Shown: positions 14,528 to 51,287 of the stretch, in pieces
Layout of the letters: every line of letters begins with the position of its first letter
Numbering within the stretch: the stretch's first letter is position 1
IMG/VR virus record: IMGVR_UViG_3300015263_000627
Strand: one strand, 5' to 3'
Length of the DNA: 64,000 nt
Source of the DNA: a virus
Position numbers and translations under genes: made by a program
The notes under the pieces: model-generated
Told to the model about the DNA's origin: nothing
Databases searched by the model: none
What the model saw: the letters and a program-made list of their open reading frames with translations, nothing else

Positions 14528-14601
14528 GGCTCATTAGTTTAAAAGTAGAACGTTGCTTTTACACGGCAATTGAAGCGGGGCAGTACCGTTATGAGCTACC
14601 A
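14528..14601 (+). tRNA. tRNA-Val(UAC), T-loop GGCAGTA
   Basis: Loop TTTACAC; CCA. Confidence 0.85.
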
Positions 14602-14662: not shown

Positions 14663-15570
14663 TATAAAACACAAGTAAACTTTATAACTTTGGCGGTTTA
14701 GCGTCGTCAGGATAGCTTGGAGTGATCCAAGTTAAAGCTGTGTATCCTATTAAACAGCGCCCGCAAGGGTCCATCTAAACAAGCCTAGTCGTCCCCGCGA
14801 GGGGCTATCAGGGATGATGGTAGTATATATGACGACAAGGTGTGGTCCGAAAGGATAGGGGTAAGCCTCTGCGAAAGCAAGCCCAACCTAATATCCCGCA
14901 AGGATAGCCACACATGCAAACTTGTCTAGTAGGTATCGACAATAGGTAGTTACAGTAATCCGATGCTTCGCGGCAAAGGGTGGGTAGCATGATCTTCGGG
15001 AGAACGGACCCCGCTATTCGGAGGGGAGACGTATATCCTAGAGTCAGGTTGAGTAACTCGCAAGGTGAAAAACAGTTGGTGTGTTGTATTTTGTTTCCCA
15101 AAAGGAAGCGAAGCAACCGAACCAGCACATCAAAATAGGTTTAGAAAAAATGATCCATGGCGGATCATCTGCATATGAAGCAGAAAGGATTGGTTCGATT
15201 CCAATTTTTTTCACCAGAGAAAACGCAAAGTCTGGTTCGATGTTGATTGAGAAATGGTCTAAACCAATGGCGGCTTGCCGTAACATTGGCGATGAAGCCC
15301 CGCAAGGGTGAAGTTGTTATTTGATCGAATTATCCTAATGGGTTAGCGCCCATGAATAGCTCGCAAGGCTAAGGGTGAGATGATCGGTGAGTAGATCAAC
15401 ATGACAAGTGAAACGCTACACTTCAAAAAAAGCGACCTTGTTACACTACATGCCGAAACGGTATGTGGATGAAAGGGAACCCTTATAGTGCGCTAGTCGC
15501 CGCACCCGAGCAGGGTGGGGGATAATCCTAGAAGGTGTAACGCTAAACCCTGTAGTCTCAAGGGTCTAAA
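14646..15570 (+). ncRNA. GOLLD-like giant ornate RNA (about 900 nt); ends approximate
   Basis: Many GNRA-capped helices (CCGCAAGG, CTCGCAAGG). The blocks GGTGTGTTGTATT...CAAAAGG...CAGCACATC, CCTAATGGGTTAGCGCCC and CTGTAGTCTCA resemble GOLLD from memory. No credible ORF; sits inside a phage tRNA array. Confidence 0.72.
15144..15216 (+). tRNA. tRNA-like element embedded in GOLLD, anticodon AUG (His-type), acceptor GAAAAAA/UUUUUUC
   Basis: D-arm GATCC/GGATC; TCTGC-ATATGAA-GCAGA; ATTGG-TTCGATT-CCAAT; A73-CCA. Confidence 0.7.
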
Positions 15571-15725: not shown

Positions 15726-15890
15726 ATGTTAGAAGGATTAATCGGATTTGCTATCGGGGCAATTGTTATTGGTGTTATTGCCAATCGCCGCCCTCAATGG
15801 TTTGCATCTATTGTAACCATGGCAAATAAAATCGATGATAAAGTCAACGCTGGTGTTACCAGTATAGTTGAAAAAGTTCAAAACAAATAA
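15726..15890 (+). CDS. 54-aa small membrane protein
   Basis: AGGAG RBS; MLEGLIGFAIGAIVIGVIANRRP (N-terminal transmembrane helix). Confidence 0.65.
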   Translation: MLEGLIGFAIGAIVIGVIANRRPQWFASIVTMANKIDDKVNAGVTSIVEKVQNK

Positions 15891-15964
15891 TGTAGTGACC
15901 GCAGAAGCGACGAGAGCGCCCGATAAGCGTTTGCAAGAAGGGGCAGTACCTTCCACTACAACCA
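15891..15964 (+). tRNA. tRNA-Ile(GAU), T-loop GGCAGTA, aberrant D-arm
   Basis: Loop CCGATAA; CCA. Confidence 0.75.
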
Positions 15965-16947: not shown

Positions 16948-17035
16948 GCGCCATGGTGTAAGACACGGGAGAGACTTATAAACTCTTTAGCATCAGATGG
17001 GTGTTCTTGACTTGGGGCAGTACCAAGATGGCGCA
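16948..17035 (+). tRNA. tRNA-Ile(UAU) with long variable arm, T-loop GGCAGTA, no encoded CCA
   Basis: GCGCCAT/ATGGCGC; AGAG-A-CTTATAA-A-CTCT. Confidence 0.7.
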
Positions 17036-17097
17036 CATAGACTCCAAATTATGATAAATAGATGTAATAATCTGTCCTCTAACTTGGAGTATAAATA

Positions 17098-17688
17098 ATG
17101 TATTACACCATTTACAAAATAACCAATAAAACCAACAACAAATATTATATAGGCAAACATCAAACCAATAACATTGATGATGGTTATATGGGTTCCGGTA
17201 AATTATTACGCCGCGCTATCAATAAACATGGAATAAACAATTTTGTTAAGGAAATTCTCCATATATTTGATAATGAACAGGATATGAATAATAAGGAAAA
17301 AGAACTTGTTGTTATTGGAGAACAATCATACAACTTATGTGATGGTGGTAAAGGTGGGTTTGGATATATAAACAAACTTCCAAATCAATCTTGGCGTATT
17401 AAAACTGGAAAAATTACTTCGCAAAAATTAAAAAATAAATCGGGGAATGATCATTGGAAAAATATATCCAGATTATCTCATGAAAAATATTCGAATTTAG
17501 GATTTCGTAGTTATTCAAAAAAACAACAAAATAAATGGAAATTATTAGGCAGTAAAAACGCACAAACACCAGAAGCTAAAGAAAAAAGAGCAAATACATG
17601 GAAAATAAAAATACAGAATGGTTGGAAACCCCACAATTGGAAGATGAAGAATGTGAAGTCTGTCGTTATACAGGTCAGAAACCCATAA
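17098..17688 (+). CDS. GIY-YIG homing endonuclease (SegB-like) in the tRNA array
   Basis: YTIYKITN...YYIGKH...YMGSG...YNLCDGGKGG. Late promoter-like GATAAATA at 17053-17060. Confidence 0.88.
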   Translation: MYYTIYKITNKTNNKYYIGKHQTNNIDDGYMGSGKLLRRAINKHGINNFVKEILHIFDNEQDMNNKEKELVVIGEQSYNLCDGGKGGFGYINKLPNQSWRIKTGKITSQKLKNKSGNDHWKNISRLSHEKYSNLGFRSYSKKQQNKWKLLGSKNAQTPEAKEKRANTWKIKIQNGWKPHNWKMKNVKSVVIQVRNP

Positions 17689-17763
17689 AACTGAAAAGAC
17701 AATGGGTCCATTACTTTCCCTTAAAGGGAAGGATTGTGGTATGTAGATCAAAAAGGTATAATC

Positions 17764-18129
17764 ATGAAAGCAATCTTTAGGTATGATGAATTTTCACACC
17801 CACCGCGAATGATGATCAACATTCATGGTGCGCCTCATGAAAGGCAGCATCGTGAAGTTCTTCAAAAGTATCGCGATGATTTGACTGATGCTTTCAAAAG
17901 ACAGTTGCCGAATGTTACAATTCCTATTGACCATCCGGTTGACTTGGAAGTGTTTTTCACTAATCCGGCAAGTCCTGATTTGAACCATGTATTGACGGCA
18001 TTGTTCGCCGCAATGGATGCAAAGTCATTGAAGGGTCCGTCTATTTTGACTGATGATCGCCATATTCAAAAGGTGGTTATGTCGAAATATTATATCGGTA
18101 AGCCAACAAAAAGGGATAGTGTCCGATGA
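17764..18129 (+). CDS. RusA-like fold protein with degenerate catalytic motif
   Basis: PDLNHVLTALFAAMD...LTDDRHI resembles RusA PDxDNxxK...DD, but with substitutions. Confidence 0.5.
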   Translation: MKAIFRYDEFSHPPRMMINIHGAPHERQHREVLQKYRDDLTDAFKRQLPNVTIPIDHPVDLEVFFTNPASPDLNHVLTALFAAMDAKSLKGPSILTDDRHIQKVVMSKYYIGKPTKRDSVR

Positions 18130-19330: not shown

Positions 19331-19405
19331 TTAGATAGGATACCGGTATCCTCCATGTAGATATGGTGGCAGTTAAGGCTGTCGAGTAAAGCCGGGGCTA
19401 TAATT

Positions 19406-19483
19406 GGGGTGCGGGATTGCATAGGGTGATCGCCTGCCTTGCAAGCAGGAATCAGCGGGGGGCAGTACCCCGGCACTCCACCA
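19406..19483 (+). tRNA. tRNA-Ala(UGC), G3-U70, T-loop GGCAGTA
   Basis: Loop CTTGCAA; A73-CCA. Confidence 0.88.
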
Positions 19484-19569: not shown

Positions 19570-19644
19570 GCTGCTTTCGTCTAACGATCAGGACACCGCC
19601 CTCTCAAGGCGGAAACGTGGGGTGAGTACCCGCAAGCAGCGCCA
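19570..19644 (+). tRNA. tRNA-Glu(CUC), T-loop GTGAGTA
   Basis: Loop CTCTCAA; CCA. Confidence 0.87.
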
Positions 19645-19647
19645 ATT

Positions 19648-19975
19648 TCGGAAGCGTAGATGATCGCGCTACGGTGAGGAAAGTCGGGTCTGCTAATACA
19701 ACCGTAATGGGTAACGCCCATCCACAGTAATGTGAGGATTAGAGCTACAGGGACGATCCTATTAAGTTAGGGATGAAACGAGCAATCTCTACGGGCAGCA
19801 ATCTCAAGTTCTCCGAAGGGTATGTATTCCCATCACTTAAATGTGTGTTAGGTAATGGTAGAGAGCAAAGACCTAAATGGAAACGTTTGGGCAAGTCAAA
19901 TGATCGTCATATATTGATTATAATACGACCATTTCTATAATCAATATGAACAGAAACCCGCTTATTCGCTTCCGA
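19648..19975 (+). ncRNA. rnpB: RNase P RNA (phage-encoded, compact, lacking P13/P14)
   Basis: P1 TCGGAAGCG/CGCTTCCGA. CR-I GAGGAAAGTC and CR-V AACAGAAACCCGCTTA form P4 with a bulged U. P9 TGGGTAACGCCCA, GATGAAACG, GCAGCAA, L15 GGT, GNRA-capped P18 and P19 are present. Confidence 0.9.
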
Positions 19976-20068
19976 GAAATACTTACCGGGATAAATACCA
20001 TGTATATCCCGGCATGGCTCGTCCGGGATTTTTTATTTTAGAGCCATAATAATAAAGAGGTAAAATAC

Positions 20069-50392: not shown

Positions 50393-50926
50393 TTAAGAAA
50401 TTTTAATCTGATTTATAAGTTCTATTAATTCTTCATCTGAATGATTATTTTTAGCAAGATTAACACCATAGGCAACAAATTGGACATTTCCTTTTACATA
50501 ACCAATTTTAGAATTTTTTCGATCTAATGAAGCTGATAATAATGTAGAATGTTGATAGGTCTTTCGTAAATTAATTGGAATATTAGAAAGCGCACATAAA
50601 CCATTTTGTTTGTTCCATAAGGATTTTAAATATGCTTCATCAATGTTTGAGGTTCCATACTGTCTTTCTCTATCTCTGATTTTTTTAATATAATAATAAA
50701 AATTTACATCAAATTGGCGATTAGCCTTTCCATATGTATTTCCTTTAGATCGTTCACGTAACTTATTTCTTTGATCTTGAGACATATTTTTATTTTTATA
50801 TGTAGCGGTGCAAGATAATGAACAGAAAAAATAATTTCTACCATTTTTTATTTGACGATTATATTCATTGAATGGTTTATAAAAATCTTTTTTACATTCA
50901 GTACAATTTAGCTTGACTTCGGACAT
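50393..50926 (-). CDS. Homing endonuclease (HNH-like) next to the tmRNA
   Basis: C..C...FCS..C at the N-terminus; CALS...ASLDRKNSKIGYVKGNV...NLAK. Confidence 0.75.
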   Translation of the reverse strand: MSEVKLNCTECKKDFYKPFNEYNRQIKNGRNYFFCSLSCTATYKNKNMSQDQRNKLRERSKGNTYGKANRQFDVNFYYYIKKIRDRERQYGTSNIDEAYLKSLWNKQNGLCALSNIPINLRKTYQHSTLLSASLDRKNSKIGYVKGNVQFVAYGVNLAKNNHSDEELIELINQIKIS

Positions 50927-50946
50927 AATATCTCCTATACTAAATA

Positions 50947-51270
50947 GAGTTGCAGATGATGACTTCTGGATGAAATACTTGCGGAACAGGGGGTGCGACT
51001 CCCCCTCACCTCCACCATAAATCCATTAGCTCCATATTTATATATTTTGTGGATTTATGAAGGGGGTGCGTAGGATCGCCCGGGGTAAAGTAAAAAGGAA
51101 CGAGTTTGTCGGTAAGGTCTAAGCCGTAATAGAGACACAAAGTAAAGGACAACGATTATGTTGCTCCATTGTGGGATTTTGCATCCCTTCGTGAACCGGC
51201 GCTTGTCGCCTAATTAGCGGGGATAAATCCTACGGGGTTAGGGGGGAACCTGTCACAAAAATCCCCCCAT
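50947..51270 (+). ncRNA. ssrA: Circularly permuted two-piece tmRNA; tag (A)DNDYVAPLWDFASLREPALVA
   Basis: The acceptor piece ends AGGGGG-TGCGACT-CCCCCT-CACCTCC-A-CCA (51017). An intervening stem TAAATCCA/TGGATTTA follows. The coding piece starts GGGGGTG (51062, G3-U70)-CGTAGGATCG. Tag ORF 51148-51213. Confidence 0.88.
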
Positions 51271-51287
51271 TTATTATTGAGGAAATA

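Follow-up and report, generated by a model that had tools for sequence, protein, structure and literature searches.

RNase P RNA is, to our knowledge, regarded as the product of a universal, single-copy cellular gene, and a copy embedded in viral DNA raises the questions of whether it is genuine, whether it belongs to the virus and what it might do there. The window considered here, a 64-kb stretch (64,000 nt) of the IMG/VR virus record IMGVR_UViG_3300015263_000627, had been annotated from the sequence alone as carrying such a ribozyme at positions 19648 to 19975. A cmscan search of Rfam 15 identified 19648-19979 on the plus strand as a full-length bacterial class A RNase P RNA (RF00010, RNaseP_bact_a), covering the entire model (1-367 of 367 positions) with a score of 139.1 bits and an E-value of 1.2e-42. 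The covariance-model search suggested in the preliminary description has therefore returned a match above the gathering score of 100, and within the RNase P clan the bacterial model scores highest. There is hardly any doubt that this stretch is an RNase P RNA gene. The start and strand originally given stand, whereas the end, 19975, marks the final P1 pair, with the model match extending to 19979. The gene is 332 nt long and has a GC content of 43%, compared to 39% for the window. It has the lowest RF00010 score of all the viral copies described below, and the z-score of its minimum free energy (MFE) is only -2.06.

The carrier is an uncultured T4-like phage, in which the ribozyme gene lies within a cluster of ~30 tRNA genes, confirming both the phage origin and the placement within a tRNA array that had been proposed. 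The window encodes a T4-type gp32 single-stranded DNA-binding protein, a baseplate tail tube cap and NAMPT, and phage genes are present on both sides of the ribozyme. The gp32 is ~50% identical to homologues from Sinorhizobium phiM12-type phages and cyanomyoviruses; the phiM12 group includes the nearest cultured phages, which, along with the type of the tmRNA, suggests that the phage may infect an alphaproteobacterial host. Besides the ribozyme, Rfam recognized GOLLD (15074-15564), a permuted tmRNA (50909-51271) and 23 tRNAs, and ARAGORN predicted 24 tRNAs, all on the plus strand. The array is interrupted by genes for a GIY-YIG homing endonuclease, a metallophosphoesterase and a methionine aminopeptidase. 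Tandem tRNA genes are separated by CCA plus 4 nt, and the CCA, the partner of the GGU motif in L15 of RNase P RNA, is encoded by 28 of the ~30 phage tRNA genes. Immediately upstream of the ribozyme is a tRNA-Glu(CUC)-like gene (19570..19644, plus strand; RF00005, 45.3 bits) with an encoded CCA and a GUGAGUA T-loop, and P1 of the ribozyme begins 3 nt past this CCA. Two Logan runs contained an exact protein match. In one of them, SRR29850985, a contig encoding an identical metallophosphoesterase carries a PDDEXK_5 gene approximately where the window has its upstream tRNAs, which may point to a strain variant in which a nuclease gene has been inserted.

Could the gene be a cellular rnpB introduced by misassembly or by host DNA at the edge of a provirus? 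To place it among other viral copies, IMG/VR was scanned for the two universal sequence blocks at the spacing seen in the window, yielding 33 loci (loci outside the window, such as L024 and L029 of IMG/VR, carry L numbers; the window copy is denoted WIN). Around 15 of these indeed resemble host rnpB at provirus edges, with 0-3 tRNAs nearby, several located at the end of the locus, and an RNA far richer in GC than its flanks. The other 18 reside in dense tRNA arrays (5-36 tRNAs per 2-13 kb) in genomes with GC contents of 41-70% and on contigs of up to 279 kb, and 16 of these 18 yield full-length RF00010 matches of 324-367 nt. L017, L024, L030 and L038 likewise combine the ribozyme with a tmRNA. 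No RNase P core was found in L034-L036, loci anchored on the methionine aminopeptidase and metallophosphoesterase, and a search of plasmids for relatives of the RNA returned no match. Similarly, blastn against 50,697 GenBank phage records produced nothing for WIN, L005, L006 or L029, and the matches to L001 and L014 were confined to unannotated faecal-metagenome records, a misfiled Salmonella genome, contigs of Acinetobacter phage MD-2021a on which nothing is annotated at the matching position, and 'Microcystis phage MaAM05'. We rejected the latter as a cultured-phage example: its rnpB-like stretch lies in a region (L075; MW495066.1, 111320-119472) with fabI, engB, mtgA and glyS, so the match appears cellular and the record is bacterial-looking at least in this region. 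Such records illustrate how a cellular gene can come to be filed as viral, but for the window copy we consider this explanation to have almost no chance of being correct, given the phage genes on both flanks, the similar GC contents of RNA and window, the position of the RNA in register with phage tRNAs and its synteny with a second phage contig.

We then asked whether the RNA retains the architecture of an RNase P ribozyme. Helices were taken from the RF00010 alignment and checked for pairing with a script; all 100 drawn pairs, including those of P4 and P6, are standard. The helices that had been sketched by eye, namely P1, P2, an 8-bp P4 with a bulged U, P9, P12, P18 and P19, together with the L15 GGU, are thus all sound. 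P1 (19648-19658/19965-19975; 9+1 bp) closes the molecule and is followed by the 7-bp P2 (19659-19665/19902-19908), whose pairing is 100% across 15 viral RNAs and whose 7 pairs include 6 that co-vary. P3 (19667..19676) is minimal, consisting of 3 bp (CGC/GUG) capped by a UACG tetraloop, with 14 model positions deleted, and is longer in relatives. The invariant CR-I block, GAGGAAAGUC, with the 5' strand of P4 spans 19676..19689, and the CR-V block, AACAGAAACCCGCUUA, identified from the model alignment and the P4 comparison, spans 19949..19964 with the 3' strand; P4 itself (19681-19689/19956-19963) comprises 8 bp with the bulged U19684 and is 100% paired, with 2-3 co-varying pairs. The P6 pseudoknot, unmentioned in the preliminary description, is also present: its 5' strand, AAUACA (19695-19700), lies in J5/7 and pairs with UGUAUU (19823-19828), which is part of the P17 hairpin loop.

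The specificity domain (19702..19798), closed by the 3' strands of P7 and P5, contains P7, P8 (loop UAACG), P9 (loop GUAA), P10/11, CR-II (19747-19756), a short P12 of 5 bp (19757-19772) and CR-III (19770-19780; GGGAUGAAAC), which is joined directly to the 3' strand of P11. CR-II reads ACAGGGACGA compared to the consensus ACAGAAAacAgA, with ACAGGGA in place of ACAGAAA. The stacked helices P13 and P14 are typical of class A RNAs, whereas class B RNAs carry P10.1 in their place. As had been noticed, the window RNA is compact and lacks both helices, devoting 0 nt to a segment that occupies 43 model positions; no class B elements were seen. We treat P13/P14 as typical rather than defining of class A because their loss has been published as tolerated (PMC8172020). 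The following region (19802..19864) includes P15 (UCUC/GAGA, 95-100% paired), the P16/P17 hairpin (19815-19834), the loop of which holds the 3' strand of P6, a candidate extra hairpin (19835-19853) with a poor fit to the model and a putative register, and the L15 GGU at 19857-19859 (within UGGUA, 19856-19860), placed by the model alignment. An alternative register of P15 in the MFE fold, GUUCUC/GAGAGC, was ruled out because L006 has an identical UCUC/GAGA P15. In RNase P, the L15 GGU pairs with the 3'-RCCA of the substrate. The CAA of J5/15 is kept, P18 (19872..19891; 8 bp, GAAA tetraloop) is 75-86% paired with 5-6 co-varying pairs, and P19 (19911..19947) is a 12-bp A/U-rich hairpin with a 13-nt loop that recurs and co-varies in the lineage described below.

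To assess selection on this fold, the window structure was laid on a MAFFT alignment of 15 array-borne viral RNAs, an alignment not fitted to the structure. Overall, 78.5% of cells were paired, compared to 28-44% when the partners were slid, and none of 500 shuffles matched this value. P2, P5 and P15 are paired in 94-100% of cells among the viral relatives. P4 occurs as CCGGG/CCCGG, CGGGG/CCCCG, CCGGA/UCCGG and CAGGA/UCCUG, and as CGGGU/ACCCG in the window, a variant for which exact searches of viral and metagenome contigs returned 0 matches each. The complementarity of P6 at a fixed offset co-varies in 13 of the 15 RNAs. As judged from these pairing patterns, the fold of the phage RNase P RNA is shown to be under selection. 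The same result bears on the reading of the RNA as a decoy or competitor, which would titrate host RnpA or pre-tRNAs and thereby redirect or shut down host tRNA maturation. T4-like phages do remodel host RNA metabolism, and an RNA that comes without a cognate protein gene is bound to be a competitor for host RnpA, provided that it binds the protein at all; however, a decoy has no need of an intact active site, and yet P4 with its bulged U, J5/15, the L15 GGU, P6 and the elbow modules are all kept under selection, which makes this role improbable.

Trimming of the fold differs among the viral copies. P13/P14 are missing from the L005, L006 and L009 RNAs; the L024 and L029 RNAs keep P13/P14 but have P16/P17 and P6 replaced by a closed P15 hairpin, and those of L001 and L033 lack P18. 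WIN, L005 and L006 further have in common a 21-nt signature, CAAUCUCUACGGGnnGCAAUC, extending over the 3' strands of P10/11, P7 and P5 and J5/15. The signature was found in 6 viral contigs and 34 metagenome contigs, ~22 of the latter with the full RNA and nearly all with 8-16 tRNAs. Among 185,579 GTDB species genomes there was 1 match, in Methylobacterium longum, which we discarded because there is no RNase P hit at the site and ~4 matches would be expected by chance. All 13 unique lineage members lack P13/P14 and have a CR-II of the form ACAGnGACGA, and most have a short P12 capped by UUnAGU, with CR-III directly joined to the 3' strand of P11. Pairing within the lineage reaches 83% of cells, compared to 37-42% with partners slid; P4, P5, P7, P8, P9, P10 and P15 are 100% paired, P7-P11 80-100%, and P19 co-varies. 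The window RNA fits the lineage in its signature, CR-II form, UUnAGU P12 loop, absence of P13/P14 and tRNA-dense location, and constitutes a deep branch, with at most 68% identity to any other member. It is a genuine and conserved RNase P RNA, encoded by a phage and belonging to the P13/P14-less lineage. That the lineage is phage-specific we offer as a hypothesis, because an exact signature is a narrow test. More tentatively, and with doubts outweighing our confidence, the lineage might be truly virus-borne, inherited and exchanged among phages with genome GC contents from 39% to ~63% and untraceable to any sampled cellular rnpB, and might free phage tRNA maturation from the host catalytic RNA. 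If so, such independence could be useful, for instance, when the host's rnpB is switched off, broken down or targeted, and the varied trimming (no P13/P14, no P16/P17 or no P18) would represent natural experiments on the minimal ribozyme.

A positional orthologue of the gene was identified in a related phage, G003, on a 113-kb contig with 41% GC whose gp32 is 58% identical to that of the window. In both phages, GOLLD, the RNase P RNA, the permuted tmRNA and gp32 follow in like order on one strand, and the ribozyme is flanked by tRNA-Glu(CUC) and tRNA-Arg(GCG). The common order is Ser, Ser, Gly(GCC), Glu(CUC), RNase P RNA, Arg(GCG), Gln(CUG), Cys(GCA), Arg(CCU) and Gly(UCC); Gly(UCC) is followed by Met(CAU) in G003, and in the window an additional tRNA-Gln(UUG) precedes Met(CAU). 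The two RNase P RNAs are ~56-62% identical, differing in P3, P9, P12 and P19 with the core kept. Among the neighbouring elements, GOLLD scores 180 bits in the window, contains an embedded tRNA (15144-15216) and has a counterpart at G003:C1:59461-59955; the permuted tmRNA, which is in two pieces, has its counterpart at 91545-91787 of G003, with its order relative to gp32 conserved. Retention of the locus across the divergence of the two phages argues that the gene has a function. It also weighs against a hitch-hiking or decaying copy that is currently functionless. Such a fate might be read from the lowest model score among the viral copies, the remodelled P16/P17 region and the lack of close relatives; but every drawn pair is standard, changes on both sides of a pair found solely in the window copy affect P4, P8, P9, P12 and P18, and the position is maintained in G003 despite the modest conservation of gp32. 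We regard decay as very unlikely, somewhat more so than the decoy role.

Which protein would such an RNA work with? Searches of five carrier contigs, including one that is 95% complete, gave no match to RnpA (PF00825), whereas a control search recovered it in 10 bacterial genomes. It was also not among the Pfam families matched by 62 ORFs of 85-204 aa from the window, and a scan of the 64 kb for the RNR motif yielded nothing convincing, in agreement with the preliminary description, which had noted no rnpA gene. Since neither the window nor the five carrier contigs yielded an rnpA gene, host RnpA is plausibly, and in our view most likely, the partner of the phage RNA. The same absence could be taken to mean that the RNA forms an active RNase P without host RnpA, either alone or with an unrecognized phage protein: in vitro, bacterial RNase P RNAs are catalytic on their own, and the shortened P3 could signify an altered protein interface. 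Yet bacterial RNase P RNAs require the protein in vivo, and loss of the bracing P13/P14 should increase rather than relieve protein dependence. A 131-aa ORF at 17734-18129, the sole uncharacterized ORF that the two arrays share, was considered as a protein cofactor and ruled out, having no similarity to RnpA. An RnpA-free enzyme accordingly appears unlikely, though less so than a decoy. The ORF itself is unassigned to a family; its counterpart in L074 (6079-6480) is 41% identical, each of the two lies just upstream of the Ser-Ser tRNA pair of its phage, and the PDLNHV...DDRHI motif presumably recalls RusA-type resolvases.

The preliminary description had further proposed that the ribozyme may be tuned to odd substrates of the phage itself. 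The window does encode a set of tRNA-like genes in which the T-loop reads GGCAGUA or GUGAGUA instead of UUCGAAU (14528-14601, ~15890-15962, ~16960-17035, 19405-19483 and 19570-19644), all with an encoded CCA. No fewer than three (14528, 15890 and 19570) are packed tightly against a canonical tRNA, and three were overlooked by Rfam and ARAGORN alike. However, G003 keeps the ribozyme with an array in which the T-loops are almost all canonical, with one odd element in the stretch examined, and the window RNA retains CR-II and CR-III, the modules that read the tRNA elbow. Moreover, the GGCAGUA loop resembles the T-loop of the alphaproteobacterial tmRNA consensus, GGCgGUA, so that ordinary cellular RNase P would need to cope with such loops already. 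As far as these comparisons go, special tuning of the ribozyme to the odd tRNAs is not supported.

With regard to expression, the promoter scan detected no promoter-like site directly upstream of the ribozyme. Promoter-like sites inside the gene occur only in P19, on both strands, and in the P18/J18-2 region; the P19 matches were dismissed as arising from the palindromic sequence of this helix. Copies of the T4 late-promoter motif, TATAAATA, are not enriched, and none lies before the RNase P RNA; a copy directly precedes the GIY-YIG endonuclease gene (17090-17688) within the array. Given that the ribozyme and the tRNAs are on the same strand, that P1 starts 3 nt after a CCA and that no promoter-like site lies just upstream, the simplest reading is that the ribozyme is most likely co-transcribed with the tRNA array. 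The 3' flank (19986..20039, plus strand) contains an 8-bp hairpin (19986-20012) followed by a U-rich tract, with a fold z-score of -3.2, and is possibly a terminator or processing site; the promoter/terminator scan, in which this flank was unscored for terminators, identified neither a canonical terminator nor a promoter of the ribozyme's own. Within 19986-20039, CCGGGAU/AUCCCGG is present three times, so that two mutually exclusive hairpins are possible, with a run of six U after the second, an arrangement just 3' of the ribozyme that resembles a terminator/antiterminator pair.

Taken together, we consider it likely, with reasonable confidence, that the phage RNA acts with host RnpA on phage tRNA precursors. 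According to this model, built from comparative evidence, the RNase P RNA would be transcribed along with the tRNA array and would fold into a standard catalytic core with a trimmed specificity domain. It would then most likely combine with host RnpA into an additional RNase P, and this hybrid enzyme would trim the 5' leaders off the ~30 phage pre-tRNAs and probably off the phage pre-tmRNA as well, the benefit being that tRNA maturation is kept from limiting infection. If the function is as proposed, a phage with its own catalytic subunit, but without the protein, adds a ribozyme to the viral genes supporting translation and raises the question of hybrid enzymes made of phage RNA and host protein. 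The phage copies also provide structure-function studies with a set of naturally trimmed ribozymes, and for annotation they mean that rnpB matches in viral contigs should not automatically be treated as host contamination. Consistent with the earlier remark that RNase P RNA is rarely reported in phages, no virus- or phage-encoded RNase P RNA was found in the full-text literature, a body that excludes most subscription journals, and a survey of huge phages does not mention one (PMC7162821).

Compared to the class A RNase P RNAs of Escherichia coli (M1, rnpB) and Thermotoga maritima, the window RNA is alike in P1-P5, the bulged U of P4, CR-I, CR-IV and CR-V, as well as in P6, P7-P12 with CR-II and CR-III, the L15 GGU of P15 and the GNRA loop of P18. 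It differs in being viral, in residing in a tRNA array with no rnpA found alongside and in its structural details: no P13/P14, a 3-bp P3, a 5-bp P12, a candidate extra hairpin after P17 and a 12-bp P19. The signature of its lineage was, moreover, not found in any cellular rnpB among the 185,579 species genomes. Archaeal type A RNAs also have a specificity domain without P13/P14, but they lack P18 and function with several proteins; the window RNA shares the first of these traits, has P18 and is best matched by the bacterial model. Loss of P13, P14 and P18 is not uncommon in bacterial RNase P RNAs (Lui et al. 2021, PMC8172020), and because loss of P13/P14 is already known from bacteria, the compact shape as such is not new. 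It is common to the window RNA and those of CPR bacteria, but the latter are single essential cellular copies, two-thirds of which lack the CCA-binding motif (PMC8172020), whereas the window RNA is an accessory viral copy that has kept the GGU, P16/P17 and P18. Among viruses, the ribozyme shares its location with translation-related RNA genes of the kind carried by large phages, namely GOLLD, a permuted tmRNA and ~30 tRNAs. The role of RNase P was worked out in part with pre-tRNAs of phage T4. The T4 tRNA cluster offers a functional parallel: RNase P processes the T4 pre-tRNAs and pre-tmRNA (PMC11143913), and both T4 and the T4-like phage described here would produce multi-tRNA precursors needing this enzyme. 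Whereas T4 depends wholly on the enzyme of its host, however, the window phage carries its own predicted catalytic RNA.
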